Below, piece by piece: positions 5,865 through 55,240 of a stretch of 56,406 nucleotides of DNA. The translations under genes were made by a program, and so were the position numbers. The DNA comes from Spartobacteria bacterium (lineage in GTDB: Bacteria; Verrucomicrobiota; Verrucomicrobiia; Chthoniobacterales; UBA10450), in NCBI GenBank assembly GCA_039933235.1, contig JBDTOL010000141.1, positions 1 to 56,406 on the forward strand, in the 5' to 3' direction. Each line of letters opens with the position of its first letter. Position 1 is the stretch's first letter. The notes under the pieces were generated by a model. The model made no database searches. It worked only from the letters and a program-made list of their open reading frames with translations, and was not told the DNA's origin.

Positions 5865-6089
5865 GATGATCCGCGCGCAGCTGCGATGAGGGGGTGGCTT
5901 AGAACTTTATCGAACATGGGCAATAAGGTGGCGGGGCTTGGACAAAGGCAGTTGGTACGTTCTGAGCCGTCGGCTCTTCTGAATGGGACCTTCCGCATTT
6001 AGCCGTCATTATCGGACGTTTGGCAAGGTAAAATTGCCTCTGACGCCTAGTGGCCGACCAATGCTCAGTGGCTCCCTAAAGACAGTTTC

Positions 6090-6137
6090 AAAAAAACTGC
6101 CCGATTCCCCCGTTCGAAGTCGTGAGATCGAGGGCAG
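6090..6137 (-). terminator. possible intrinsic terminator downstream of ybaB
   Basis: On the minus strand, CTGCCC...GGGCAG forms a 6-bp stem with a large loop, followed directly by TTTTTTT. A tighter hairpin GGCGAC-ttgc-GTCGCC lies at 6160-6175. Confidence 0.35.
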
Positions 6138-6200
6138 CGCAGGAGAGAAGATTCCGACGGGCGACGCAAGTCGCCGGCCCCCTCCAGTCGCCAGCCCCTC

Positions 6201-6521
6201 CTACAGCCCTAACCCGCCGAGGCCGGGGAGATTCATGCCGCCGGTGATTTTGGACATCTCGCCGCTGGCCATTTCTTTCCCCTGGGTAATGGCCTGCTGG
6301 ACGCCGCTCAGAATGAGGTCTTCCAGGATCTCCACGTCCTCCGGGTCGATGATTTCCCGGGCGATCTTGATCGAGAGGACGTCGCCCGCGCCGTTCGCGA
6401 CGACCGTCACCTTGCCGCCACCCGCGGTCACTTCGACGGTCTTTTCCTCCAGCTCGGCCTGTGTCTTGGCCATTTGTTCCTGCATCTTCTGCGCTTGCTT
6501 CATCAATTTGTTGATATTCAT
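6201..6521 (-). CDS. ybaB: nucleoid-associated protein YbaB/EbfC
   Basis: 106 aa with the typical sequence MNINKLMKQAQKMQEQM...GGGKVTVVANG. It lies immediately downstream of dnaX, the conserved dnaX-ybaB arrangement. Confidence 0.9.
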   Translation of the reverse strand: MNINKLMKQAQKMQEQMAKTQAELEEKTVEVTAGGGKVTVVANGAGDVLSIKIAREIIDPEDVEILEDLILSGVQQAITQGKEMASGEMSKITGGMNLPGLGGLGL

Positions 6522-6526
6522 CGGAG

Positions 6527-8227
6527 TCAGGTGGTGACGGATTTGATTTCGCCTTTGAAAATCTCAAGGGCCTCTTTGATTAATGGATCGTCTTTGAAGG
6601 AATCGAGCGAATTGTCGGACGTCACTTTGGGAGGGGGTGCGGCGCCGTAAACTTCGGTGGCGGGCGCGACCGGGGTGATATTTTCGTCCAAGCTCGGTTT
6701 TATGGTCCAGTCGGTGCCGGTAAGCTCCTTGAGCAGGGCTTCGAGAAAACTGCGGTTGTTAGGGCGGGAGAGCCCTTCCATGATCGTTTTTTCCGAAGGG
6801 GCAAAACCGAGCAGGAGATTGCGACCCTCCGTCCCGAGGTAGTGCGAGGCGTCGATCCAGGTCTTGATCAAGGGACGGCGGGCGTGGCAGAGCTCGACCG
6901 CTTCCTGCCACACGACGGCCATATCCGCGCCTTCGGATCTGCTTTTAGGCGGAGATTTCTCCGGAGCCGAAGCCGAGGCGGACGCGGGATTTGGAACCGG
7001 CGAAGGAGGAGGTGGGGCGGATTTCTTTTCCGCAGCAGGTTTGGGCGCGGGACGGGGGCTGGCCTTCGGGGCCGAAGGAACCGGTGCAGCGCCCCCGCGC
7101 AGGGCGGAGAGGTTTTCGATCACTTCATTGAGCGTGACCTGGCTGAGCGTCTGGATCGCTTTGATCACCGCGACTTCGAAATGCAGCTTCTTGTTCGGCG
7201 CCCATTTCATGCGGCCTTCCGCCTCGGCGAATTGCTCGATCAACTCGAGCAGCCGGTCGGTCTCGATCAGGCCGGCCTCTTCGCCTAACGACGACTGCAG
7301 CTCGGGCGCCGCTTCGTCCGCCAGGGCGTCTGGTTTTACCTTGTAGACGAGCAGGTCGCGCAAATGCGCGATGAGATCGCTCATGAGCTTCATCATCTCC
7401 TTGCCCGCGGCCGCCTGGTCGTCGAGCAGGCCGAGCGCGGCGGAGGTCTCGCCGCGCAGGATCTTTTCCGTGAACCCGGCGATGGCCTGTCCGCTGGTGA
7501 AGCCAAAGACATTCAGGACGTCGCTCTCCGCGACCGTCTCGCCACAAAACGCAACGAGCTGGTCGAGCATCGATTCCGCGTCGCGCAGGCCGCCATCCGC
7601 GCCGCGCGCGATGGCGTGAGCTGCGGCCGGCTCGAGGGTGATCTTCTCCTGCCCCGCGATGTATTGCAGGTGCTGCGCGATGAGATTGGCCGGGATGCGG
7701 TGGAGATCGAACCGCTGACAGCGGCTCAGAATCGTGATCGGCAGCTTGTCGGGCTCCGTCGTAGCCAGGCAAAAAATCACATGCTGCGGGGGCTCCTCAA
7801 GAGTCTTGAGCAAGGCGTTGGCCGCTTCCTTCGTCAGCATGTGCACCTCGTCGACGATGTAGATTTTGTATTTCCCCTTCGCCGGGGCGTAGCGCACGTT
7901 GTCCCGCAACTCGCGGACGTCGTCGATGCCCCGGTTGCTGGCCGCGTCCAGCTCGAGCACGTCGAGACTGTTGCCCGAGGCGATCTCCTTGCAGTTATCG
8001 CACACGCCGCAGGGAGTCGTGGTCGGTCCGTGGATGCAATTGAGCGCCTTGGCCAGGATGCGGGCGGTCGAGGTTTTGCCGGTCCCGCGCGGGCCGACGA
8101 AAAGGTAGGCGTGGGCGAGCCGGTTCTGCTCGACTGCATTCCGCAGCGTGCGCGTCACATGCTCCTGGCCGACGAGGTCGTCGAAGGTCTGCGGCCGGTA
8201 TTTTCGCGCAAAAACCTGGTAGCTCAC
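6527..8227 (-). CDS. dnaX: DNA polymerase III subunit gamma/tau
   Basis: 566 aa. N-terminus YRPQTFDDLVGQEHV, Walker A GPRGTGKTS, DEVHML, zinc module CGVCDNC, and a Pro/Ala-rich linker. Confidence 0.95.
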   Translation of the reverse strand: MSYQVFARKYRPQTFDDLVGQEHVTRTLRNAVEQNRLAHAYLFVGPRGTGKTSTARILAKALNCIHGPTTTPCGVCDNCKEIASGNSLDVLELDAASNRGIDDVRELRDNVRYAPAKGKYKIYIVDEVHMLTKEAANALLKTLEEPPQHVIFCLATTEPDKLPITILSRCQRFDLHRIPANLIAQHLQYIAGQEKITLEPAAAHAIARGADGGLRDAESMLDQLVAFCGETVAESDVLNVFGFTSGQAIAGFTEKILRGETSAALGLLDDQAAAGKEMMKLMSDLIAHLRDLLVYKVKPDALADEAAPELQSSLGEEAGLIETDRLLELIEQFAEAEGRMKWAPNKKLHFEVAVIKAIQTLSQVTLNEVIENLSALRGGAAPVPSAPKASPRPAPKPAAEKKSAPPPPSPVPNPASASASAPEKSPPKSRSEGADMAVVWQEAVELCHARRPLIKTWIDASHYLGTEGRNLLLGFAPSEKTIMEGLSRPNNRSFLEALLKELTGTDWTIKPSLDENITPVAPATEVYGAAPPPKVTSDNSLDSFKDDPLIKEALEIFKGEIKSVTT

Positions 8228-8280
8228 ACGCTCAATCTAGTGCCTCGCTGTGGACGCGGAAACAGAAATTCGAAAAGGCA

Positions 8281-8368
8281 GACAGGATGAACAGGATTTG
8301 TAGGATCTTTTGGAAACGGCATCGCTCTCAACCCTCTTTTAATCCTGCAAAATCCTGTTAATCCTGTC
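8281..8368. promoter_or_regulatory. long imperfect inverted repeat built from AGGAT units in the dnaX / S58-peptidase divergent intergenic region
   Basis: Arms are gacaggatgaacaggatttgtaggatc (8281-8307) and aatcctgcaaaatcctgttaatcctgtc (8341-8368). The reverse complement of the right arm matches the left arm with one indel and a few mismatches. The right arm ends 5 nt before the ATG at 8374. Confidence 0.6.
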
Positions 8369-8373
8369 CCTGC

Positions 8374-9597
8374 ATGAACGAAAGATTTCTCGTAGCGGGC
8401 ACCGCGCTATTTTTTTCTGCCGGCCTGCTCGTCGCGCGCGAGCCGCAAACCTCGCCGCCGCCCCAGCAGAGCATCCGGGCGCGCGCGCTTGGAATACCTT
8501 TTCCCGGCCAGCCGGGTAAATTTAACGCAATCACCGATGTAGCCGGAGTCGAGGTCGGATACACGACCCTTATTAGCGGCGAAGGAAAACTCGCGGTCGG
8601 CAAAGGGCCGGTCCGGACCGGGGTGACCGCGATCATTCCGCGCGGGCACGACTCGCTCAACGATCCGGTTTACGCGGGCACCTTCAGCCTCAATGGCAAC
8701 GGGGAAATGACCGGCACCGCCTGGGTCGAAGAGAGCGGTTTCCTGGAAGGACCAATCATCATCACCAACACCCACAGCGTCGGCACGGCGCGCGACGCGG
8801 CCATCGCCTGGCGTCTTTCCCACGGGGCGGCGGACAAAACCGGCTACTGGTGGAGCCTGCCGGTCGTGGCCGAGACTTGGGACGGCTGGCTCAATGACAT
8901 CAACGGCTTCCATGTAAAACCGGAGCACATCACCCACGCGCTCGATACCGCGGCGGGCGGGCCGATCGCGGAGGGCAGCGTCGGCGGCGGTACAGGTATG
9001 ATTGCCTACGAATTCAAAGGTGGCACCGGGACCGCCTCGCGCGTCATCCCGGTGGCGGAGGCTGCCGACGCCGGTCGCTCCTACACCGTGGGCGCACTGG
9101 TCCAGGCCAACTGCGGCCGCCGCTCACTCCTCACGATCGCCGGCGTTCCGGTCGGAAAAGAAATTCCGGGCTCCATCTACCCGAAAGACACCGGCTCGAT
9201 CATTATCGTGGTCGCGACCGATGCGCCGCTCCTGCCGGGCCAATGCAAGCGCCTGGCCCGGCGCGCCAGCCTGGGATTGGCTCGCACCGGCAGCATTTCC
9301 GGGAACGGATCGGGCGATTTGTTCATCGCCTTCTCCACCGCCAATCCCGGCGCGGCCGATCCCGCGCAGCCGACCCACACGGTGCAGACCGTGCCTAACG
9401 ACCGGCTCGATCCGCTCTTCGATTCCACCGTGCAGGCGGTCGAGGAGGCGATCGTCAACGCGTTGGTCAATAATCGGAGCATGACCGGGCGCGACGGCCA
9501 TGAGGTGCCGGCCCTGCCGCATGATCAGCTGCGACAGATCATGCAGAAATACAACCGAATCGAGACCGGCAAGCCTGCCGCGTCGGCTTCGCCCTAA
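8374..9597 (+). CDS. P1/S58 family peptidase (DmpA-like aminopeptidase), secreted
   Basis: 407 aa with a signal-like N-terminus. DmpA-type blocks GPVRTGVTAI, GGGTGM, IIVVATDAPL. Confidence 0.8.
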   Translation: MNERFLVAGTALFFSAGLLVAREPQTSPPPQQSIRARALGIPFPGQPGKFNAITDVAGVEVGYTTLISGEGKLAVGKGPVRTGVTAIIPRGHDSLNDPVYAGTFSLNGNGEMTGTAWVEESGFLEGPIIITNTHSVGTARDAAIAWRLSHGAADKTGYWWSLPVVAETWDGWLNDINGFHVKPEHITHALDTAAGGPIAEGSVGGGTGMIAYEFKGGTGTASRVIPVAEAADAGRSYTVGALVQANCGRRSLLTIAGVPVGKEIPGSIYPKDTGSIIIVVATDAPLLPGQCKRLARRASLGLARTGSISGNGSGDLFIAFSTANPGAADPAQPTHTVQTVPNDRLDPLFDSTVQAVEEAIVNALVNNRSMTGRDGHEVPALPHDQLRQIMQKYNRIETGKPAASASP

Positions 9598-10031
9598 CGA
9601 CCGATATCCTCATCCCAGAGCTCGGGATGGGCCGCGATGAATTGCGTCATCATTTCGACGCATTCCGGCAGATCGAGATCGATCACCTCCACGCCGTGAC
9701 TCCGCATGAAGTCCGGTCCGCCGGGGAAAGTGCGACTTTCGCCCACGATCACTTTGGGAATGCCAAACTGCACCACGGCGCCGCTGCAGAGGTAGCACGG
9801 CATGAGCGTGGAATAGAGGACCGTGTCGCGAAAACTTCCGATCCGTCCGGCGTTGCGCAGGCAATCGATCTCCGCGTGCGTCACCGGGTCGATTTCCTGC
9901 ACGCGCTTGTTGTGGCCGAGAGCGAGCAACTCGCCGCCGCGCGCCAGGGTCGCGCCGATCGGGATCCCGCCTTCGCTCAGACTTTTCCGCGCCTGCGCGA
10001 TGGCCGCATCCATCAATTCTTTGTCGTTCAT
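9594..10031 (-). CDS. nucleoside/cytosine deaminase (CMP/dCMP-type zinc deaminase, Fcy1-like)
   Basis: Motifs HAEIDC...PCYLCSG. The C-terminal tail FIAAHPELWDEDIGR resembles yeast Fcy1. I chose the start at MNDKEL (10031) rather than the ORF-track start at 10097. Confidence 0.8.
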   Translation of the reverse strand: MNDKELMDAAIAQARKSLSEGGIPIGATLARGGELLALGHNKRVQEIDPVTHAEIDCLRNAGRIGSFRDTVLYSTLMPCYLCSGAVVQFGIPKVIVGESRTFPGGPDFMRSHGVEVIDLDLPECVEMMTQFIAAHPELWDEDIGR

Positions 10032-15261: not shown

Positions 15262-18126
15262 CTACTGCACCGTCAGCTTCGCGTCGTTGCTCGTGACACT
15301 GCCGCCTCCGTCACTGACAACGACGGAGAAAAGCGCGCCATTATCAGCAGTCGTCGCCGGCGGAGTCGTGTAGGAGGACTTGGTCGCGCCTGTGATGTTA
15401 AAGGCGTTCTTTCTCCATTGACACGTCAAGGGAGGCGCGCCGGTCGCGGCAACAGTGAAGTTAGCGGTCTGTCCTACGATAACTGTCTTATTCGCCGGCT
15501 GCTTCGTGATCGCGGGCGGGTCGACTGAATTCACCGTAAGCGTGGCATCACTACTCGTTACCGTCCCGTCGCCGTTACTCACGATGACGTGGAAATGCGC
15601 CCCATCATCCGTACTCGTGGCCGGCGGAGTTGTGTAGGAGGACTTATTCGCGCCCACGATGTCGAGGTTGTTCTTTTGCCACTGGTAAGCCAGGGGAGCC
15701 TTGCCGGTCGCCGTGACGCTGAACTTCGCGGGCTGCCCAGCGGTCACGGTCTTATCCGCCGGCTGCTTTGTAATCGATGGTGGCGTCGCGCCATTCACCG
15801 TAAGCTTGGCATCATTACTTGTGACATTGCCGGCACTATTACTGACCGTGACGTGAAAGAGAGCGCCGTTGTCACCGCTCCTGACTGCAGGCGTGATGTA
15901 AGTCGAACTTGTTGCGCCTCGAATATCGAAGCCGTTCTTCTGCCATTGGTAAGTTAGCGGAACGCTGCCCGTAGCCGCGACATCAAATCGCGCTTTTTCG
16001 CCCTGATTCACGGTCGCGTCGACCGGTTGCTGCGTGATCGCAGGCTGGCCGTTACTAACGACGTACTTGGCGTCGTCACTCACTGCGAGGGTGAGCGCGT
16101 CGATGATCCCGGAAGTAGTGAACGGCGCGAGATCGGTCGTGGAGGTCAAAACGCAATACTGCACGGCGCTGTTCGCAGGTTGCGGTGCTATCGTCGCCGA
16201 ATAGTTGGTCCCCGCGCCGTTCGCTTTGACGAGTTGCGAAGTGAGGAAGAAATCAGTCGACCATCGGAGGTATATGCGCTCTTCGGGCGATTTCGGCTGA
16301 TTTGTGCTGATGCTGACCACCACGGGGTCGTCAGCTGTAGGTGCGTCTGGTGTACGCCCGTTCAGGCTGCAGGAGATCGGGGCCGCGGAGGTTTTGAACA
16401 CACCGAGGTTCATGGCAGCGCCGGTTTGTCCAGACCATTCAAGGAGACGGAATGAGTAGTAGAAGTCCGCGTCGAAAGTGATGCTATTGGTAGGTCCCAG
16501 GGCAGTGCCGGTGAAATAGGGAACTAAAGTGGTAGTATCGATATTCATGGCCGCGCCGCCCCATTGGTTCGTATATTTTTGGCCAGCAATGACGGCAAAG
16601 GAATGAACTCCGGGAGTGGTATCGCCACCCGTGCGGGCGACGTGGATTGTGTTCGTGAACCAATTGGAAGCGTCCGGTGTGCCCGCGGGGGGCAGTGCCG
16701 GGCTGGATATTCTCGTTAGGTTCCAAGGCGCATGGGTGTCGGCTTTATTGAATCCGTTCCAATCGCCTGCTAAAACGAGCGGCTCCAAGTCCTGGTCGAC
16801 GTTTCGTTTCCAGAGAGGTGAGATTGTCTGCGTGTTCCATTGGGAATACAACTCCTGCAGATTAGCGACATCTTCCGGCTGGGCAGTGGCCACGTCTTGT
16901 GTTTCACCGATATCGTTCGCCAGATTGTAGAGAGCGGGCGGCAGGTCCGTGGTGTTAAGTTCCGTGACGAGTTTCAAACTGCCGCTTCGCACCGCCCAGA
17001 TAGTATCCGTACTTCCGGGTGGTCCATCAGGCCCCAGGCCGGCCCAGCGCCAGAACAAAGTGCGGTTGGGGTTGGTCTTTTGTCCCGTGAAGTAGGGCAG
17101 CAGATCGACTCCATCAAAGGCCCGATCGGTGGGAAGCGAGACTCCGGCGGCCGCAGCCGCGGTGGCCACAATGTCCAGGGAAGAAACTGAGTCCTGATAA
17201 ACAAGAGGCGTAGGCAGGCGGGCTGGCCATTGAAATGCGAAGGGGACGTGAATCCCTCCCTCCAAGACATTTGCCTTGTAGCCGCGCAGAGGCAGATTGC
17301 GGGTGAAAGACGCGTAGGGCGCTCCGTTATCGCTCAAAAGGAAGACAAGGGTGTTATCGCGAAGGTTGTTAGCCTCCAGAGTCGCCAGGACCTGACCTAC
17401 TCCATCATCCAGTGCAAGGATCATTGCGGCATACTTTCGCCGGTTGTAGTCGGGGATGCCTGCGACCCGATCCAAATAGTTGGCAGGAGGTTCGTCGTAC
17501 GGCAGATGGGGAGCGTTATAAGCCAGGTAAAGGAAGAAGGGCTGAGTGGGGTGGCGGTTGATAAAGGAGACAGCTTCGCGGGTGAAAGCATCAGTTAGAT
17601 AAGAAGACTCCCGGATCGTGCTACCATTTTGCAGGATGGTCGCGTTGTAATAGCCGGATTGGTCGCCGAGAAAGCAGAAGCATTCATCAAAACCGCGCTG
17701 CAGCGGCTGCAAATTCGGGGGATAGCCAAGATGCCATTTGCCGACCAGGCTGGAGACATATCCGGCGGGTTTGAGGAGTTGAGCCAGAGTGATTTCCGTT
17801 TCCGGCAGGCCGCGGCGAGGGTTGTCATTGTCGCCGGAGGGTTGCTCTTCGTGGCCAAAGCGTTGTTGATAGCGGCCGGTAAGCAAGGCCGCTCGCGATG
17901 GACTGCACAGCGGATGGGTAGCATATCCGTTCGTGCATGCGATGCCTTGGTTCGCAAAGCCATCGATGTTGGGCGTCTGATAATCCGGGCAGCCATTGAA
18001 GCTCACGTCGCCGTAGCCAAGGTCGTCTGCCATGATGACGACGATATTCGGCGGCGTTGATTGCGCGAAGGCGGAGCCGACCAAGGTACAGCTCGCAACT
18101 AACCAAGAAAGAAGCGTTTTTTTCAT
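15262..18126 (-). CDS. secreted arylsulfatase fused to an uncharacterised middle region and three C-terminal Ig-like domains
   Basis: Signal peptide MKKTLLSWLVASCTLVGSAFA. Sulfatase motifs IVVIMADDLGYGD and the formylglycine site CSPSRAALLTGR. Three C-terminal repeats of about 87 aa carry YQWQKNG-type motifs. Start chosen at 18126; the ORF track gives 18234. Confidence 0.85.
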   Translation of the reverse strand: MKKTLLSWLVASCTLVGSAFAQSTPPNIVVIMADDLGYGDVSFNGCPDYQTPNIDGFANQGIACTNGYATHPLCSPSRAALLTGRYQQRFGHEEQPSGDNDNPRRGLPETEITLAQLLKPAGYVSSLVGKWHLGYPPNLQPLQRGFDECFCFLGDQSGYYNATILQNGSTIRESSYLTDAFTREAVSFINRHPTQPFFLYLAYNAPHLPYDEPPANYLDRVAGIPDYNRRKYAAMILALDDGVGQVLATLEANNLRDNTLVFLLSDNGAPYASFTRNLPLRGYKANVLEGGIHVPFAFQWPARLPTPLVYQDSVSSLDIVATAAAAAGVSLPTDRAFDGVDLLPYFTGQKTNPNRTLFWRWAGLGPDGPPGSTDTIWAVRSGSLKLVTELNTTDLPPALYNLANDIGETQDVATAQPEDVANLQELYSQWNTQTISPLWKRNVDQDLEPLVLAGDWNGFNKADTHAPWNLTRISSPALPPAGTPDASNWFTNTIHVARTGGDTTPGVHSFAVIAGQKYTNQWGGAAMNIDTTTLVPYFTGTALGPTNSITFDADFYYSFRLLEWSGQTGAAMNLGVFKTSAAPISCSLNGRTPDAPTADDPVVVSISTNQPKSPEERIYLRWSTDFFLTSQLVKANGAGTNYSATIAPQPANSAVQYCVLTSTTDLAPFTTSGIIDALTLAVSDDAKYVVSNGQPAITQQPVDATVNQGEKARFDVAATGSVPLTYQWQKNGFDIRGATSSTYITPAVRSGDNGALFHVTVSNSAGNVTSNDAKLTVNGATPPSITKQPADKTVTAGQPAKFSVTATGKAPLAYQWQKNNLDIVGANKSSYTTPPATSTDDGAHFHVIVSNGDGTVTSSDATLTVNSVDPPAITKQPANKTVIVGQTANFTVAATGAPPLTCQWRKNAFNITGATKSSYTTPPATTADNGALFSVVVSDGGGSVTSNDAKLTVQ
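15265..16044 (-). repeat. three tandem coding repeats of about 261 nt (Ig-like domains) at the 3' end of the sulfatase gene
   Basis: Protein repeats are PAITQQPVDATV...AKLTVNGAT, PPSITKQPADKTV...ATLTVNSVD and PPAITKQPANKTV...AKLTVQ. Confidence 0.8.
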
Positions 18127-19090
18127 AAGCGAAAGAACGGCACATTCCCTTGGTTGGACCCTTCGTTTGCGGGCGTAGCGGCAGGGAAATTCGGCTTTCA
18201 GATCAAACTGCGAAATTCGGTTTCTGGCTGTCAAGGCAAATAAGAGTAAATTTTCTGCACAAGATCGCCCCTTCTGTTACAACGGATCGATATGCAAGTG
18301 GGCGCGACCAGACGCAGAACTCATCGGACGCTGCCTACGCTACGACTCATTTGGATCGGCGCTTGCTTTTCCCTGACAACTTCCAGCCTAAAGTTGATTG
18401 CCCGGTCGGAGGCTGCGAGAACGGAAACACTGGGTCCGCACGCGGCTCTCCAATCGCGCATCTCGTCATTCGCGCCGACCCAGGTCGAGAGTAGGATCGC
18501 GCCTGGCTCCGCACCGGTCGGCATGGCTTGGTTGCCGATGGCGAATTTTCCATGGGGAATCCCGACAGTCGCGGAATGATGGGCGGCGGACCGGATGCGA
18601 TGGCGGGCGCGCCAATCTCTGGACGAACATCCTTGCCCATTGGCTGACCAACGCCGAGCCGGAGAACGTTGTTCCATTCATGGCTAAGGCCGAGTTCGCG
18701 GCGCTCAGCGTAGGTGAGTTACGGCGTAACCCGCCTAGAGGCAGCAACGCAAAGCTAAGCTAAACAATTCCTCATTGACTCCCCTTTAACTCGACGCAGC
18801 CTTACGCTAGTCAGAGGTAGGACGTGTGCCGGTGGCGCGTGTCTGTGGGCTGACTGTCGCAGCGGGGCTGTGGCGTTCCCGGTGGGGACTGAACTTGCGA
18901 GCTAGACGGCTTCCGGTGGAGGCCACGCGGTGACCTTGCGATGAAAGCGTTCGCGTTGCTGTTTAACTGACCTCGTGTTTTGAGATAATTTCGGAGTCTG
19001 TGCGATAGGGCAGTTAGAAGGCTGTTTTGCCTTGGTAGACTGACTCTCCATAGGAGAAAAGCGATAATTCGATAACTACTCCTAGGACAG

Positions 19091-49107: not shown

Positions 49108-49195
49108 GGTGAGGTGGCTGAGTGGTCGAAAGCAGCGCTTTGCTAAAGCGCCGTACCCCAAAAGGGTACCGAGGGTTCGAATCCCTCCCTCACCG
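49108..49195 (+). tRNA. tRNA-Ser (anticodon GCT)
   Basis: GGTGAGG acceptor stem pairing with CCTCACC. Anticodon stem-loop GCGCT-TTGCTAA-AGCGC, a long variable arm CGTACCCCAAAAGGGTACC, and T-arm GAGGGTTCGAATCCCTC. Confidence 0.9.
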
Positions 49196-49218
49196 TTTCC
49201 CCTCGGAAGCATTCCGGA

Positions 49219-50748
49219 TCATGCGAGAGTAAAATCGACGTAGAGGTCGCTGATTTTCACGCGCTGATCCGCGCTGGCCTGGACCTGTGCTGCCTTCCAT
49301 TCCTTCCAGGTGGCGTCGTCAACCAGACTCTCGAATTCCTTTTCCGTGGCCTTGTCCGCGGCGTTCTTTGCGTTATCCGCCCAGCCCAGATCGGAACGTA
49401 CGACGCGCCCCTGGCATTTTTCCAACAGGCGTCGGTAGAGAGCGCGCGCGGGCATTTGCCAGGAATCCTTGGGGTTTCGCCCTAGCGCCACGGCGCGGTC
49501 GACCGGAATGAAGGCGATCAATTCATCCTCCCGGCGCATCAGCTCGAGGCCCTTTGCTTTGGCGGTCGCGTTGTGGCTGGAGTGGTGGCCGACTTTGTAG
49601 AAGACGGTTTCGGCGAGCAATTGGTCGGCCGTCTTTTCCTTCACGGTGGAGCCCTCCTGGACCGTCCATTTCATGTCGGGCGCGTGCCAGGAAAGCCAGT
49701 TGCCCTGTTGCGCGTCGGCTGGGAAAAGCAGCACCTTGCCGTCGCTCTTCCGTTCGATCGCGAGCGCCAGGCTGGTGTTGTTCGTCATGCTGTCCAGTTG
49801 CAGGGCCAGGTCAGCCGCCGCGCGCAACCATTCGTGGTCGATGCGACGCCAGTCGTCTGGCGGGTTGAGATAATTTTCGCTGGCCGGACGCGCCAGAGAA
49901 TGGTCGCCGGGGAGCCGGCGATAGGCGTCAAACGACATTTCGCTTTCCCGCTCGTCCGCGCTCGCCGCGGCGCCGCTGGCCGCGATCCGCATCCCGTCGC
50001 TAATATGATAGAGCTCTGCGCTCTCGTGCTCTCCCATGTCGCGCAAGCTCAACCGCGACGTCGGCGGCCCAAGCACGTAAAAGCGAAATCCGGGCAGCCA
50101 ATCCTCTTCCAAGGCGGCTCCGCCCGGTTTTTTGTAAAGCGCTTCCTGGCCGAACCCCGTCCGCACAAAAGTCATCGCTTCATCGACGGTCTTCGCAAAA
50201 CCGGCCGCCCCCAGCGCCAACGGATCACCGGAAAACCCGAGGATGCTTTGAATAGCGGCGCCTAATTGCGCGGACTCATCGTTAGAGCACCGCGTCAAAG
50301 CGAGGGCGGCAGCGGCCAGGGCAGCGCCAAGGTCGTCCTTGTACTTCACAATCTCCCGGGCGTCGGGGTCCTTGGGGTTTTCCGTCCATGCCATCCAGAC
50401 GCGGTCCACCTGGATTTGTTCGAATTCCTTCCGGCAACTGCGGAATCCGCAGACGTGGTCCTGATGCTCGTGCGTGGCGATGAGAAGATGAAGATGATCG
50501 TTCGTGGTCCGGCGAATGTCGGCCACGACGTCGGCCAGTTTCACGCCGGTTGTTTTCGCGCCGAGGGAACCGCAATCGATCAACATGTGAACCTCCTTGC
50601 CGCCGGGATCGAAAGTGACGAGGAAACAATCCCCCAGGCCCGACCGATACATCCGCACTCGCACTGGCGGGCCGCTCTTGCCGGCGCGGGTGGATTTTCT
50701 TTTTTTGGACGCCTTCTTGGACGTGGGGCGACGTTTTCTAGAGGCCAC
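49219..50748 (-). CDS. metallo-beta-lactamase-fold hydrolase with a large internal insertion (ComEC-type MBL motifs)
   Basis: Motifs GLGDCFLV, ATHEHQDHVCGF, NNTSLAL, LFPADAQQGNW, YKVGHHSSHNAT. Start uncertain. A GTG at 50748 overlaps the upstream gene by 11 nt and adds a Lys/Arg-rich tail (KRRPTSKKASKKRKSTRAGK). Alternative starts at 50664 and 50652. Confidence 0.8.
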   Translation of the reverse strand: MASRKRRPTSKKASKKRKSTRAGKSGPPVRVRMYRSGLGDCFLVTFDPGGKEVHMLIDCGSLGAKTTGVKLADVVADIRRTTNDHLHLLIATHEHQDHVCGFRSCRKEFEQIQVDRVWMAWTENPKDPDAREIVKYKDDLGAALAAAALALTRCSNDESAQLGAAIQSILGFSGDPLALGAAGFAKTVDEAMTFVRTGFGQEALYKKPGGAALEEDWLPGFRFYVLGPPTSRLSLRDMGEHESAELYHISDGMRIAASGAAASADERESEMSFDAYRRLPGDHSLARPASENYLNPPDDWRRIDHEWLRAAADLALQLDSMTNNTSLALAIERKSDGKVLLFPADAQQGNWLSWHAPDMKWTVQEGSTVKEKTADQLLAETVFYKVGHHSSHNATAKAKGLELMRREDELIAFIPVDRAVALGRNPKDSWQMPARALYRRLLEKCQGRVVRSDLGWADNAKNAADKATEKEFESLVDDATWKEWKAAQVQASADQRVKISDLYVDFTLA

Positions 50749-53700
50749 GATGTAACGCCGCGAAGGGCTCCTCCAGTTCTGCGTTCCACCTCGGACTACC
50801 GAAATAAACTCCCCGTCGGGTGCTGTGCGAGGTCTCGGCGAAAGCCTGCTGCCGCTCCAGGCGACTCTGGCTATTGACACCCTTGCGGATGCAATAGCGA
50901 ATGCGGCAGGAGCGCAAATCCGCGATCAAACTGCAGCCCCCTTCGAACACCATTTTTGGTCCGCGCGGATCGTCCGGATCCGCCGGCCGGGGTCGGCGCT
51001 GCAAAATGCCGAGCAGGAGTTGCGGGTTCATTCCGCCATCCGGGCTGGTCCGAAAGGCGATCCTGGCGGAGCGCACTTCGAAGGTCAGCTTCGGGTCGAG
51101 TCCGAGGTAGGCCGCGTCGCTGACGCCGGCCGGGCCGGACAGGAAATGTGCTTTCATCCACTCATGGATCTGCCACCGCATCGAGCGTTCGAGGTGGAAC
51201 AGCGCTTCGCGCGATTCGCTGTAGGTGTGCTCTTGGGCGTACTGCCGGAGCTGAATGAGGGCGGCTTCCAGCTGGGGTGAAGGCGTGAGGCCGTCTTGTT
51301 CCAAGTTGCGCCAGAGCAGGCTCTCCACGCTCAACGTCCGGACCTCCCGGGGATAGAGCGCGCGCTTGCGGAACGCCTCGATGAAGGCGGTGCGATAGCC
51401 GAGATCATCGTCGGGCACGAGATCGAAGTCGGCCGTGATGATGGCGCGCAGATATTCGCCAAAGGTGATGTCGACCGGTGGGCAATAATCCAAGGCCCGC
51501 ACGCACATCATCAAAACGTGATCGGCGGACTTGGCTGCTTCGACGGCGAGCCGGTTGACCAGGTCGGGATGGATTGCGTCGGGCTGAACCACTCCGGTGC
51601 CGCCGGTGGCCAGCCGCAGCAAATCTGCCGTGCGACGCTCGTAAATGGAGAGGAAGGCGTCAAAAACAGCCGCCACCAGGATGGCGCCACGCCGATGCGG
51701 TTCGAAGGTGTTTTCGTACTCGTCCGGCTTGGGCTGATGCGGCTTCCAGGTTCCATTTTCGATTCGGCCAATGGCGTCGCGTAACGCCGTGCGCAGCCCG
51801 GTGCCGCGGCCGAACTCACCCGCCAGTTGGCCGAGGAGGTTTTCCTGCGAGCGAACCGCGCCGCGGGTACTGGAGATTTGGTGCCGCAGGATTTCCGGAA
51901 AAGTAAAGTGCTGAAAGAGCGCCACCAGATCGGCAAAGGCCTCGTGAAAGGCATGCACGTCCGGATTGGTGGGGCTGAGGAAAGAGCGATTCATCCCATC
52001 GAGGAGCGCGTGCGTCGTTTCGTGGGCGATGATGTCATGCGAGAGACAAGAGAAAACCATCCCGCCGGCCATGTGCTCACCGGGAGCATCGGCGGACGCT
52101 CTGAAGTATCCAAAAAGCAAAGCGACTTTGGCCGGCGTATAGTAGGCGTTTCGCTCGCGCAACCCGTGCGGATAAATCCGCAGGCGCTGCACGAAATTGG
52201 AATCGTTTTTCGGCTTTCGAGGATCGGGCGAAGGCCCGGGGCGCCACAAGCTACGGCGACCGAGTGCGCGCTCGAACTTGTGTATTGTTAGGCTGGTGAC
52301 CGCATACACCATCTGTTGATGGAACTGCGGCGTGCCTGCGCTTGGGGCAAGGCCATCCTGCGCCAGCAATTTTGGATCGTCCAGGCGGACCGGTTCGTAG
52401 AAACAATCGCTGCCCGGGTCGAAATCGATCACTTCAAGATATTCGCCGCGTGGCCCGGGTTCGAGATTCTCCCAGGGCAACTGCAGCGTGATCTCGCTAA
52501 TGCCGACGGTCTTGAGATCGATCGCGAGACTGGGATCGAGGGAGAACCCCCGCAGCCTCCGGAAAGGCGGCGTCGCAACGGTGAAGGCCCTCGGCCCCGG
52601 CGTCATTGAAGGCTCCAGTTTCTGATCGACCGCAGGATTCTTGCGTGCGACCCGCGTCCGTTTGCCTCTGGTAGGACCGCGCGGTGTTTGCGGGAGCAGG
52701 CTCTCGACATACCGAACCAATCGGTCGGAGGCCAGAGGATGATCGTGCAACGCTTCGAGGTAAGCGAGCCGTTGCGATCCAGAAATCGCCTCCGGTGGAG
52801 AATCGGGATCGGGCAGAACGGTTTCGAACGGATTGGGGACGTCGGTCCGTGGCCACCGCTGCGCCAGTTGAGTCGCTTCGAGTTCCAGCATGCGGCTGGC
52901 AGGGTCCGCTACGAGACCGAAACCGCTCAGCGCGCGCAGGAACGGAAATATGGCGCGGTCTGGCGGCGTTTTTTGCAGCGCCGAAGCTTTCGGTGGTGCG
53001 AACGCCAAGGCGCGCGCCGATTTGAGGATGCCGTTGCCGAGTTTCTCGGAGCTGCCTCCGTCGGCGGATTTGTCGGCGCTGGCAAATAAGCCACGCCGGA
53101 CCGCTTCCACCCGCATCCAATTCTCCGGATATTTCGCGATCTCGGTTAAGTGCCGTTGCAGATACAACGCGGCCGCGGCGGCAACCTGGGGCGTGGCGGC
53201 TGACGTTCCCTGGCCGTTCATGTCGACGATATCCGCGCAGCCCAGTTCGGCCCAGGGGATGTTAGGCGTGAAAGCGGCAAGAGCCGTCGCCATCTTACTG
53301 GCCGGTCCCCAATTCCCCTGCATCGTCCCGAACGACAGTCCGTAGTAAGGGTGCGCATTCGCCATCACGCCGCAGGCCGCGATGACCCGGCGGAAGCGCG
53401 CCGGATAAACGATGAACCGGGTCGGCACTCCAAACGGCCCGGCGGAAAAGTTGTTGCCCGCCGCGCACACGTAAACGATTCCCGCTTCATAGGCCTTGTT
53501 CACCGCATCCGCCCACGCCTGCGAGGCCACGCCGCCCATGCTCATTGACATGACATGCACCCGCGTCGCTTCCTTTGCGCAGAGCTCGGCCGCGTAATTG
53601 ATCCCCGCGGCCACGGTGCTGGTATAAAGCTGGACGACGGATTTTCCCACCCGGACAGGAACGATCTCCGCCTGCGGAGCGCCGCCGATTAAATCATCGA

Positions 53701-54442
53701 ATTGATTCGGGTAGCCGGCGCCATTGAATTTGAAGTGCCCGCCGGCGAGAATGCTCAGAGTGCCAGTGCCGTGCCCGGGGTTTCGCAGCAGCTCATGCTT
53801 GCCCGGATCGTGCGCATCGTTGGCCGCCTGATCATTGACGAAGTTTCGTTGCAGATCACGTCGCAAATGCGGCGGCAGAACGGAATGGTTCGGATCGTAA
53901 CCGGTATCGAGGTGAGCGATTCGCACGACCTTGCCGTTGGCCGCTCCGTCCCGGGCCGATTTCAACTGCGAGTAACCATCACCGAGATGCCAGGCAAAAC
54001 GGCCATTGATACGCGGCAGATTCGGTATCTGATCATCGAAAACGCACGCCGCAGCCGCGACGACCCCGGCCGGCGACGGCAGCAACGGGTTCTCCGGGAG
54101 CCATTGCTGCTCGAAATCCGGTTCAATGAAAACCTCCGGGCTGCCCGTCAGTCCCACCTGCTTGCGCACGGCGTCGTGGGCCAGATCCCATGCTTTCCTG
54201 CCAGTCACTGCCGTCGGCCGAGCGACATACCACTCCCAGCCTTCGCCAGCGGCGGCCACGCCGAATTCCGCCGATGGAGGTCCGGTGCTGAAGAGTGGCT
54301 CGATATCAAAGCTCACACCCGACACGCCCAAGAAGGTTCGCGTGTCGATCGCCAACGCCGCGCCGCTGCCAGCGGGGAGACGCAGTAGAAGAGCGGAAAA
54401 CTTCGCTTCTTTCATACCCACCAGAAATTCGCCCCAAGCCAT
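50738..54442 (-). CDS. large cytoplasmic fusion protein: S8 subtilase domain + thermolysin-like (gluzincin HExxH) domain
   Basis: S8 triad contexts IAHLDTGYD, GHGTGTLS, GQGTSAATPQVAAAAALY. The C-terminal half has NAYYTP...LFGYF, DIIAHETTHALLDG, FHEAFADLVALF. This parallels thermolysin NAFW..., VVAHELTHAV, NEAISDIFG. No signal peptide. Candidate starts at 54442 and 54415 (ATG) and 54490 (TTG). Confidence 0.85.
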   Translation of the reverse strand: MAWGEFLVGMKEAKFSALLLRLPAGSGAALAIDTRTFLGVSGVSFDIEPLFSTGPPSAEFGVAAAGEGWEWYVARPTAVTGRKAWDLAHDAVRKQVGLTGSPEVFIEPDFEQQWLPENPLLPSPAGVVAAAACVFDDQIPNLPRINGRFAWHLGDGYSQLKSARDGAANGKVVRIAHLDTGYDPNHSVLPPHLRRDLQRNFVNDQAANDAHDPGKHELLRNPGHGTGTLSILAGGHFKFNGAGYPNQFDDLIGGAPQAEIVPVRVGKSVVQLYTSTVAAGINYAAELCAKEATRVHVMSMSMGGVASQAWADAVNKAYEAGIVYVCAAGNNFSAGPFGVPTRFIVYPARFRRVIAACGVMANAHPYYGLSFGTMQGNWGPASKMATALAAFTPNIPWAELGCADIVDMNGQGTSAATPQVAAAAALYLQRHLTEIAKYPENWMRVEAVRRGLFASADKSADGGSSEKLGNGILKSARALAFAPPKASALQKTPPDRAIFPFLRALSGFGLVADPASRMLELEATQLAQRWPRTDVPNPFETVLPDPDSPPEAISGSQRLAYLEALHDHPLASDRLVRYVESLLPQTPRGPTRGKRTRVARKNPAVDQKLEPSMTPGPRAFTVATPPFRRLRGFSLDPSLAIDLKTVGISEITLQLPWENLEPGPRGEYLEVIDFDPGSDCFYEPVRLDDPKLLAQDGLAPSAGTPQFHQQMVYAVTSLTIHKFERALGRRSLWRPGPSPDPRKPKNDSNFVQRLRIYPHGLRERNAYYTPAKVALLFGYFRASADAPGEHMAGGMVFSCLSHDIIAHETTHALLDGMNRSFLSPTNPDVHAFHEAFADLVALFQHFTFPEILRHQISSTRGAVRSQENLLGQLAGEFGRGTGLRTALRDAIGRIENGTWKPHQPKPDEYENTFEPHRRGAILVAAVFDAFLSIYERRTADLLRLATGGTGVVQPDAIHPDLVNRLAVEAAKSADHVLMMCVRALDYCPPVDITFGEYLRAIITADFDLVPDDDLGYRTAFIEAFRKRALYPREVRTLSVESLLWRNLEQDGLTPSPQLEAALIQLRQYAQEHTYSESREALFHLERSMRWQIHEWMKAHFLSGPAGVSDAAYLGLDPKLTFEVRSARIAFRTSPDGGMNPQLLLGILQRRPRPADPDDPRGPKMVFEGGCSLIADLRSCRIRYCIRKGVNSQSRLERQQAFAETSHSTRRGVYFGSPRWNAELEEPFAALHRGL

Positions 54443-54646
54443 TCTCGATAACCGTGATCGAGCGCGTGGGGAGGATTCACGTTGCTGCAATTTTTCCGGG
54501 TCTCTTCCTGGAGGTCAATCAAAATTCTTAGCTGGAGGCTCTGGAACGCCCGATTTCCGCCTGCAGCTCCTGTCACCTTGGCGGAGATGGGAGCATCCTA
54601 AACTCTTGCGCCTTCCCGCGACCTCCGCTGAAGATCGCGGAGTGGT

Positions 54647-55240
54647 ATGAAGGTATGGAAGGCTGCCCTGCTCCTGGCCGCGCTCGCGGCAGTTATTTGG
54701 TGGTTGTCGCCGCAGCGCGCGATCAAGCCTAACGAACCGGGCGTGGTCGAAATCAACTTCACCGGCGACGCCGGGGCAAACAAGGCGGCGTTGGATGAGG
54801 CTTTTCTGGCCTTCGAAACGGAGAGCCGGGCGCTTCACGAAAAAGATCCGCATCAGCCGATTTATCGCGTCATCGCCGGGCAAAGCGCCTCGCGCGATCA
54901 GACCGCGGATCCTCTTGAGGACGCAGCCCGGCTCGATGGATGCGGTTTTTTTCGCATCTACTGGCACATCATGCTCCCGCTCGTTAGGCCAACCCTGGCC
55001 GCGATCGCGATCTTTACCTTTCTCGCGACCTGGAACGAATTCACGATGCCGCTCATCTACCTGGCCAATCAGCGGATCTATCCGCTTTCCTTCGGCCTTT
55101 ACGCTTTCCAGGTGCAGGTCTCGATTCCCGGCACGGCCAAGGGCATGGGCATGGTAATGGCCGCCTCCTTCCTCATAATGCTGCCAGTGATCGCGATCTT
55201 CCTCTTTGCCCAGCGCTACTTCCTGCGCGGGTCACCCTGA
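54647..55240 (+). pseudogene. chimeric remnant of a carbohydrate ABC transporter operon (binding-protein N-terminus fused to the permease C-terminus)
   Basis: About the first 85 aa look like a solute-binding-protein leader (MKVWKAALLLAALAAVIWWL...). The rest is the EAA-loop-to-C-terminus of a BPD-type permease (EDAARLDGCGFFRIYWHIMLPLVRP...WNEFTMPL). Confidence 0.65.

Follow-up and report, generated by a model that had tools for sequence, protein, structure and literature searches.

Metallo-β-lactamase-fold (MBL) nucleases that are paired with trypsin-like proteases have recently been described as zymogens (Tuck 2025, PMC12799240; Evans 2025, PMC12642450; Huang 2025, 10.1101/2025.09.03.673762). 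Systems pairing a trypsin-like protease with a zymogen MBL include Hachiman (HamM), AVAST (Avs1/2/4), Lamassu, and DRT, among others (PMC12799240; PMC12642450; 10.1101/2025.09.03.673762); two linkers occlude the MBL active site, and two cleavages by the activated protease yield a Zn-dependent double-stranded DNA nuclease that kills the infected cell (PMC12799240; PMC12642450). In the clades that have been tested, the protease carries a fused sensor, which varies (PMC12799240; PMC12642450). Protease-associated MBLs have been divided into three clades, associated with trypsin-like, caspase-like, and S8 subtilisin-like proteases, with experiments on the first clade only; the same work reports that effector-less proteases can defend too and raises stress-response roles for protease-effector modules (PMC12642450). 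Here, we describe a two-gene cassette of a Spartobacteria bacterium (GCA_039933235.1, contig JBDTOL010000141.1; the whole 56,406-nucleotide stretch that was analyzed is referred to as the window) that encodes a ComEC-like MBL protein directly downstream of a protein combining an S8 subtilase with a zincin-like domain that carries a HExxH motif. A first-pass annotation of this locus had presented the cassette as a candidate novel system. This is only partly right: because the three works cited above describe protease-licensed MBLs, the kind of system has been known since 2025, and its association with S8 proteases had already been noted, in a clade reported without experiments (PMC12642450).

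The cassette consists of two overlapping minus-strand genes directly after tRNA-Ser(gct) (49108–49195, plus strand; identified with ARAGORN), which is located 23 nucleotides (nt) from the 3′ end of gene 2; both open reading frames (ORFs) and the tRNA were found as first annotated. Gene 1 (50738–54415) encodes a fusion protein of 1225 amino acids (aa) with, in this order, an N-terminal region, the S8 subtilase, a basic linker, and the zincin-like C-terminal domain, while gene 2 (49219–50748) encodes a 509-aa ComEC-like MBL-fold hydrolase; all protein features given below are on the minus strand. With slightly better than even confidence, we interpret the cassette as a cytoplasmic, self-contained conflict module of the anti-phage or abortive-infection type in which a latent MBL DNase becomes active once licensed by a protease. 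The strict linkage between the two genes, their presence on plasmids, their defense-type neighbors, and the lack of signal peptides all support the earlier description of a self-contained, mobile, cytoplasmic protease-plus-nuclease module of the conflict or defense type, and the "protease-triggered nuclease" put forward in that description is, by analogy with the trypsin-associated MBLs, the best-supported mechanism.

Homologues of both genes are common (>1800 for gene 1 and >3000 for gene 2 in the protein collection searched), and the best 120 homologues of each gene were nearly all full length. A scan of 185,579 species genomes (one genome per species) identified at least 555 species with a relative; these represent about ten phyla overall, including Planctomycetota, Acidobacteriota, Verrucomicrobiota, Gemmatimonadota, Chloroflexota, and Deinococcota, as well as Alpha-, Beta-, Gamma-, and Deltaproteobacteria. 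Gene order was assessed in 85 genome loci (five from contig look-ups and 80 retained from the scan); an MBL gene was located directly downstream of gene 1, on the same strand, in 57 of these, and the co-occurrence of the two genes across genomes, which the first-pass annotation had named as a check, is thus borne out. Approximately 20 genome loci had room downstream and carried no MBL gene; these showed no common replacement partner, as their downstream ORFs were unrelated to each other.

The zincin-like domain was represented by 3941 representative clusters, many of which contain proteins of 630–690 aa that consist of this domain alone. Scanning metagenomes with a profile of these standalone proteins yielded 80 further loci, for an overall set of 165 related loci. 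An MBL gene followed the standalone, S8-less gene in 42 of the 42 metagenome loci with room for it (seven more had no room), and followed the S8-fused gene in nine of the 14 loci with room (five had no MBL; four more had no room). All three loci with another type of N-terminus were followed by an MBL gene, as were nine loci with an N-terminus made indeterminate by a contig end; one more locus of this last type had room and no MBL. When the 156 complete loci were pooled, those with S8 included 66 with and 27 without an MBL, and those without S8 included 51 with an MBL and at most one without (a contig-edge case; Fisher p = 1.9e-5). Only S8-bearing systems can do without the MBL, and the constant unit is the zincin-like domain plus the MBL, with S8 representing one of several optional degradative add-ons. 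Because S8-less proteins keep the MBL, MBL-less forms are found only with S8, and the N-terminal slot is variable, the zincin-like domain looks like the constant core of the family, with S8 and the MBL as effectors. The first-pass annotation had missed this linkage: the 42 S8-less loci that keep the MBL tie it to the HExxH domain and not to S8.

The zincin-like domain (613 aa; 50741–52579) is characterized by invariant motifs and a local match to thermolysin. Both the HETTH motif (residues 798–802; 52010–52024) and, in the HEAFAD motif (residues 824–829), H824-E825 (51941–51946) and D829 (51929–51931) are invariant. Across 20 homologues that are 55–86% identical to the window protein, H798, E799, H802, E825, and D829 did not vary, i.e., the HExxH motif is accompanied by the Glu of an ExxxD helix; HExxH...HE..D was also intact in 155 of the 156 complete loci, among them every one of the 27 that lack an MBL. 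When searched against 177,635 PDB sequences, a profile of the domain matched only thermolysin and neutral protease among proteases, with non-significant E values of 0.25–0.7; the alignment with thermolysin was in exact register at the edge strand, the HExxH helix, and the Glu helix. A comparison in hhalign, with a thermolysin sequence that agrees with the part recovered in the PDB search, gave a probability of 84% over 49 columns. The window domain (..CLSHDIIAHETTHA..AFHEAFAD..) and thermolysin (..PLSGGIDVVAHELTHA..AINEAISD..) thus share an active-site core composed of an edge strand, the HExxH helix, approximately 20 residues, and a helix with E..D. However, the Glu follows at a spacing of 23 residues in the window domain, compared with 20 in thermolysin, and the window domain is twice the size, cytoplasmic, and equipped with helical and beta subdomains of its own. 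The thermolysin-type HExxH...E arrangement reported in the first-pass annotation holds for the active-site core, where the local match was found; the domain is outside family M4, as neither an M4 profile nor a fold match was obtained. No NCBIfam or PADLOC family was found for this domain. The domain was modeled with AlphaFold2 (AF2) with a predicted local distance difference test score (pLDDT) of 79 and a predicted template modeling score (pTM) of 0.84.

Gene 2 carries the complete set of MBL motifs noted previously. D26 (50575–50577), HEHQDH (motif 2; 50455–50472), NNTS (49771–49782), D313 (49714–49716), and HH356/357 (49582–49587), with residue numbers counted from Met 50652, are conserved in 98–99 of 99 homologues drawn from both S8-fused and S8-less systems. 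The resemblance to the ComEC branch was likewise supported; with an AF2 model of gene 2 (pLDDT 82), the MBL nuclease domain of ComEC (9ic4) was the only significant PDB fold match (E 1.4e-5; TM score on target, 0.68), and NNxS, xDxQ, and HH motifs are common to both proteins. In contrast to ComEC, the window protein is soluble, has neither the membrane channel nor the OB domains, and includes two large insertions and a basic tail. The insertions are deduced from the structural alignment, because the 266-residue ComEC target is stretched over 426 alignment columns, with approximately 160 extra columns in gene 2. Insertion 1 (aa 93–168; 50149–50376), delimited from secondary structure, pLDDT, and the ComEC alignment, is helical and contains a low-confidence loop with a conserved LGF140.GD motif (F140 in 80 of the 99 homologues). 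Insertion 2 (aa 198–290; 49783–50061), supported by pLDDT and homologue conservation, is also helical and contains low-confidence loops with a P-F241-D motif (S-F-D in the window; F241 in 98/99), in addition to conserved Y261, W268, and R269. The LGF140.GD and P-F241-D loops may represent cleavage sites; both the F140 and the P-F241 loop motifs are the same in the MBLs of S8-fused and S8-less systems.

The database gene call for gene 2 begins at ATG 50652 (477 aa). The frame upstream of this ATG encodes ...KRRPTSKKASKKRKSTRAGKSGPPVRVRMYR, including a PxVRVRMYR motif and a Lys/Arg-rich tail, and because the VRVRMYR motif and the basic tail are conserved in homologues, the gene most likely starts at GTG 50748, resulting in an 11-nt overlap with the gene 1 stop. 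A basic tail of at least 10 residues was found in 80 of 116 gene 2 homologues (median K+R fraction, 0.33), confirming the Lys/Arg-rich N-terminal tail that had been raised as a possibility. Models of known defense MBLs in PADLOC and NCBIfam (LmuA, 2e-15; Avs1a, 5e-11; the DRT MBL; and 6A-MBL) matched only the first ~90 residues of the protein. Assignment of gene 2 to the trypsin-associated MBL clade represented by the Avs1a, LmuA-MBL, and 6A-MBL models was rejected, with scores far below the cut-offs.

The S8 half of gene 1 includes a Peptidase_S8 catalytic domain (53030–53935; Pfam E 9e-30), which scored 104 bits against PF00082 (cut-off, 21.8) and was the only Pfam match in the protein. The complete triad reported earlier stands, with D170 (53906–53908), H215 (53771–53773), and S405 (53201–53203), along with the oxyanion residues N321/N322 (53450–53455), invariant in the 20 homologues. 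PADLOC gave a weak match to a generic "subtilase" model (E 3.9e-7). The S8 domain is preceded by an N-terminal region of ~135 aa (54011–54415), which ends in IEPD..Q.W, has no Pfam match, and conserves L10, R12, P14, E98, P99, and Q103 in the 20-homologue alignment; from its position, this region may represent a subtilase propeptide. A Lys/Arg/Pro-rich linker of variable length (52580–52729), poorly conserved and with gap-rich alignment columns, connects S8 to the zincin-like domain. Gene 1 had been placed at 50738–54442; its end at 50738 was confirmed, while for its start an in-frame ATG at 54442, nine codons upstream of ATG 54415, is disfavored by the homologues, whose N-termini make ATG 54415 (MKEAKF, 1225 aa) the best-supported start. 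The 231-nt intergenic region upstream of gene 1 (54416–54646) presumably holds its promoter.

Neither protein appears to be exported. A hydrophobic run of >6 residues within the first 45 was found in none of 119 full-length gene 1 homologues, supporting the reported lack of a signal peptide, and none of 120 gene 2 homologues had a signal-peptide-like hydrophobic N-terminus; the conserved LL.R.P start of gene 1 resembles a folded strand rather than a signal peptide. Signal peptides in orthologs, which the first-pass annotation had listed as an observation that would overturn its proposal, were thus looked for in 119 and 120 homologues and were not seen. These data bear on the idea that the two genes encode secreted or periplasmic degradative enzymes (a nutrient-scavenging protease and a phosphodiesterase) or a protease pair for the maturation of ribosomally synthesized and post-translationally modified peptides, which we regard as highly improbable. 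S8 and M4 enzymes are classically secreted, and weak NCBIfam matches to mycosin and PatA-type proteases were obtained with gene 1. However, no signal peptide or transmembrane segment was found in the two homologue sets, intracellular subtilisins are the closest PDB sequence matches and the best structure matches of the S8 domain, no precursor peptide, transporter, or other conserved neighbor accompanies the pair, and the NCBIfam matches were all far below their cut-offs.

Taken together with the precedent of the trypsin-associated MBLs, these features suggest a mechanism in which gene 2 would be a ComEC-like, metal-dependent DNase held inactive by two large insertions near its active site, with the basic tail aiding DNA binding. 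Gene 1 would be the controlling protein, the core of which would be the zincin-like domain with its thermolysin-type HExxH...E site; the large helical and beta subdomains of this core probably sense the trigger. Once triggered, the zincin-like domain would cut the insertion loops of the MBL, with candidate sites around F140 and F241, and would most likely also free the cis-fused S8 from the pro-region at its N-terminus. With a DNase and a broad protease as its two executioners, the cell would then be sacrificed to halt the replication of the phage. The gating of a latent DNase by its insertions is drawn by analogy with the trypsin-associated MBLs. The zincin-like domain is the predicted protease that opens the MBL because no other protease-like element is common to all MBL-containing systems and because the MBL loop motifs are unchanged with or without S8. 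The S8 domain may be a cis-fused second effector, with the ~135-aa N-terminal region acting as a pro-inhibitor; a role of S8 as a second effector would explain why the MBL is lost only in S8-bearing systems.

The same loops and linkage data bear on a different arrangement, which we consider unlikely, in which the subtilase would cleave and activate the MBL, as in a classical S8-MBL module, and the HExxH domain would be a sensor or regulator, or a second protease directed, e.g., at a phage protein. The P1 preference of subtilases accommodates Phe, and the conserved Phe residues in the MBL loops fit this preference; S8 is also catalytically intact in essentially all fused forms. In addition, MBLs have been grouped by their adjacent S8 protease (PMC12642450), and the fusion of the protease to a variable sensor in the tested clades (PMC12799240; PMC12642450) would match an S8 protease fused to a HExxH sensor domain. 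However, the MBL is kept in 42/42 S8-less loci, where no other protease gene recurs nearby, and its loop motifs do not differ between systems that have S8 and those that lack it. Moreover, the slot filled by S8 is elsewhere occupied by a lipase-like domain or by a dead zincin duplicate, and only S8-fused forms can lose the MBL. The co-occurrence data thus argue against S8 as the activator of the MBL; for the fused forms, they are less decisive.

If the zincin-like domain is the activator, the ~620-aa domain could represent a new family of cytoplasmic gluzincins and a fourth class of partner for MBL zymogens, acting as both sensor and initiator protease that licenses interchangeable executioners. 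We put this forward tentatively, as a proposal that is at present rather doubtful; the executioners, on the same tentative footing, would be the MBL DNase in trans and S8, a lipase-like domain, GDPD, or patatin in cis or adjacent. Such an arrangement would make the window locus a one-polypeptide cascade of initiator and executioner proteases plus a nuclease, similar to caspases feeding CAD.

The N-terminal slot of the gene 1 family contained S8, nothing, a zincin duplicate without HExxH, or a lipase-like alpha/beta-hydrolase. Three loci (L114, 5054–8836; L127, 4417–8094; and L159, 5315–8872) encode proteins of ~1200 aa with two tandem zincin-like domains, each followed by an MBL gene; because HExxH is kept in the C-terminal copy only, the N-terminal copy is a pseudo-protease duplicate. 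Another locus (L102, 2037–5288) encodes an N-terminal lipase-like alpha/beta-hydrolase of ~420 aa fused to the zincin-like domain, with an MBL gene next to it; this hydrolase contains an AHSQG nucleophile elbow and gave sub-threshold matches to LCAT, the Tle3 phospholipase, and Abhydrolase. A 1498-aa protein (P0280) is a triple fusion of S8, the zincin-like domain, and a C-terminal GDPD domain, representing a candidate effector swap. A patatin gene adjoins the pair in eight of the 80 metagenome loci (e.g., L131, 5706–7034) and on rhizobial plasmids, resulting in a recurrent trio of a patatin-like phospholipase, a standalone zincin-like protein, and an MBL. Directly upstream of standalone zincin-like genes, we also identified a 1285-aa ParA-like/TIR/nSTAND1/TPR protein (L163, 2945–6799; 4 nt upstream) and a 724-aa protein with M6-like and caspase (C14) domains (L096, 4783–6954; 11 nt upstream), which may be extra sensors or proteases in some variants. 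The pair was split at only one locus (L015, Thermoanaerobaculia), where a 1233-aa protein with CarboxypepD_reg repeats (6078–9776) is encoded between the S8-zincin and MBL genes. A Schlesneria paludicola locus (L001) contains a 1167-aa ORF (15294–18794) that lacks Pfam and PADLOC matches and directly follows the MBL gene in the same orientation, as well as genes for an SNase, an S1-P1 nuclease, a 1908-aa SNF2 helicase, and a transposase.

Apart from patatin (eight loci) and lineage-specific synteny, all-versus-all clustering of 942 ORFs from the 85 genome loci and 362 ORFs from the 80 metagenome loci revealed no conserved third gene (ATPase, sensor, or immunity). Comparison with the closest relatives (L003, 85% identical, and L012, 73% identical) showed no synteny and no empty site, as they share nothing with the window outside the cassette. 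A total of 54 plasmids carry the zincin-like domain, and 35 of these are conjugative. On pColt5.8d of R. rhizogenes (L166, 5861–10576), a patatin-zincin-MBL trio is flanked on one side by a CBASS cyclase and SAVED protein with CapP/CapH-like ImmA and HTH proteins and on the other by AAA and HNH proteins; on pRle248a of R. leguminosarum (L170, 5815–10452), the same trio is flanked by CBASS on one side and by a DUF1837 protein and DEAD/DEAH helicase of the Hachiman type on the other. In M. extorquens, pCMU01 carries S8-zincin and MBL genes between SIR2 genes and an IS5 element. The copy on a Deinococcus plasmid adjoins an integrase and has patatin and ThiF genes nearby; Hymenobacter plasmids encode an AAA ATPase directly upstream and JAB/MPN, WYL, and ThiF proteins; and a Phyllobacterium plasmid has no defense-type neighbors. 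A PADLOC scan of 109 neighbor ORFs from 19 genome loci gave strong matches to a type IIG restriction enzyme (L006) and a mad3/LmuB-like ATPase (L009), and further matches to a CBASS SAVED-HNH effector, SngC, BrxH, and PDC-S71. These contexts, with CBASS, Hachiman, SIR2, and restriction neighbors, suggest an enrichment near defense genes; approximately half of the sampled contexts lack defense genes. Horizontal acquisition, taken as general mobility, is well supported by the plasmids, the absence of synteny between close copies, and the patchy spread.

A non-immune role, in which the cassette would be an intracellular proteolysis and nucleic-acid-turnover or stress module (e.g., for starvation, damage, development, or programmed cell death) that is mobile by chance, appears improbable to us. 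Consistent with such a role, ordinary metabolic genes flank the pair in the window as well as in several genomes, the composition of the cassette is the same as that of its host genome, the family is common in large-genome soil bacteria (Planctomycetes, Acidobacteria, and Rhizobiales), and stress-response roles have been raised for related modules, as cited above. However, the spread is patchy, with relatives in at least 555 of the 185,579 species genomes and 43–60% identity across phyla; copies are carried on plasmids, and close copies share no synteny; and copies are found directly beside CBASS, Hachiman, SIR2, and restriction systems, with modular effector slots.

Carriage by phages was rejected; no relatives were found among the 2.9 million viral contigs of IMG/VR, and the only substantial match in the phage collection was a partial zincin-like domain (L173, 3599–4834; 46% identity over residues 2–434) on a 9.5-kb scaffold from human faeces (MT836994.1, "UNVERIFIED: Bacteriophage sp."), which is probably a misassigned bacterial fragment. 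The other match in that collection covered 30% of the query at 28% identity.

Two specific arguments for acquisition made in the first-pass annotation did not hold. The first was the location next to a tRNA gene. We found no att-like repeat of the tRNA-Ser 3′ end and no integrase ORF, the GC content of the cassette (~0.61; range, 0.60–0.64) is like that of its flanks, without a composition shift, and other copies of the pair are not beside tRNA-Ser(gct) or the flanking genes of the window; a tRNA-integrated island was thus rejected, and the tRNA is simply adjacent to the cassette. The second was the absence from the cassette of the 8-mer CCTAACGA, which occurs in 29 copies on both strands of the window (0.74 expected from shuffles), with sites spanning 1588 to 56075 (e.g., 48141, 48604, 54728, and 54981) and which might conceivably be an uptake-signal or Chi-like word. 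The gap without CCTAACGA over the cassette is 6.1 kb (Poisson probability, ~0.05) and is not exceptional, because the window contains another gap of 7.1 kb; the absence of this word as a mark of foreign DNA was therefore rejected. On the other side of the cassette, the 197-aa ORF at 54647–55240 (plus strand) encodes, in its last ~110 residues, the C-terminal end of an ABC permease (Pfam BPD_transp_1, positions 79–179 of 184 only), while its N-terminus is unrelated to ABC permeases and has a signal-peptide-like start; this ORF looks like a scar of a deletion or rearrangement directly upstream of the cassette.

Several observations weigh against our interpretation. The peptidase nature of the zincin-like domain is based on a motif match of 49 columns; the domain has no Pfam match, including to Peptidase_M4 and M4_C, up to an E value of 10, and a Foldseek search of its model against PDB gave no fold match with E <0.1 and no peptidase fold. 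Defense-MBL models scored low with gene 2 (Avs1a, 41.9 bits vs. a cut-off of 420; 6A-MBL, 23.6 vs. 220), and occlusion of the active site by the insertions of the window protein is a prediction made from the trypsin-associated MBLs. The gene order, protease then MBL, is the reverse of that in the tested clade. With respect to context, approximately half of those sampled had no defense genes, and the flanks of the window are housekeeping genes (MoeA, DUF892, YceI, and an ABC remnant). Finally, different queries were used to collect the genome and metagenome loci, and the two-by-two table of S8 and MBL presence cannot be taken as an unbiased sample.

Protease-licensed suicide effectors, which parallel caspase, gasdermin, and CAD pathways, have just come to light as a dominant principle in bacterial immunity, and in the family described here, the obligate partner of the MBL nuclease seems to be a domain of metalloprotease type that is annotated in no database. 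Surveys based on Pfam protease families therefore overlook the S8-less members of the family (42 of the 80 metagenome loci), and they name the remaining members after the wrong domain. Variants that occur naturally, in which S8 or the MBL is kept or missing or a dead zincin duplicate is present, provide a test of the roles of sensor, initiator, and executioner. The family is plentiful among bacteria of soil and rhizosphere and on conjugative plasmids of rhizobia, settings in which phage defense has been little studied. If our interpretation is correct, the cassette would combine two orthogonal proteases with a latent DNase in only two genes, and such a compact system could be of use as a programmable kill switch.

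Among known systems, ietAS (Gao et al. 2020), with which the first-pass annotation had compared the cassette, reportedly uses an S8-type protease, IetS, with an ATPase, IetA, in defense. The presence of an S8-type protease in a defense context is shared; however, the partner in the window is an MBL, the cassette contains no ATPase, and no IetA-like ATPase recurs among the related loci. Membership in ietAS was rejected in the absence of an ATPase in the cassette and of a recurrent third gene, and the comparison is thus beside the point. AVAST type 1 (Avs1) was also rejected, since no STAND gene is found in or beside the cassette and the Avs1a match is far below the cut-off.

The modules that combine a trypsin-like protease with an MBL are similar in encoding a ComEC-like MBL with complete metal motifs and two insertions, and in being strictly linked to a protease-type gene, cytoplasmic, mobile, and found in defense islands; with respect to adjacency, the MBL and protease-type genes adjoin in 57 of the 85 genome loci and, among metagenome loci with room, in all 42 standalone and nine of 14 S8-fused ones. 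They differ from the cassette in that the partner in the window is not trypsin-like and is replaced by S8 plus the zincin-like domain, in that no STAND, Hachiman, or reverse transcriptase sensor is attached, and in that the insertions in the window MBL (~75 and 93 aa, helical) are far larger. Another described group is the "Clade 3" of S8-associated MBLs (PMC12642450), in which, as in the window, an MBL gene adjoins an S8 subtilisin-like protease; by the definition of that clade, the window MBL probably belongs to the same family. The accessible text on this clade does not describe a C-terminal domain, the word "metalloprotease" does not occur in the accessible portions of the three works, "zincin" and "metallopeptidase" are absent from the text of Huang et al. 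(10.1101/2025.09.03.673762), and no description of the HExxH domain, or of its primacy over S8, was found in the literature searched. In contrast to the picture of an MBL defined by an adjoining subtilase, the linkage in the loci analyzed here is with the HExxH domain, and S8 is dispensable.

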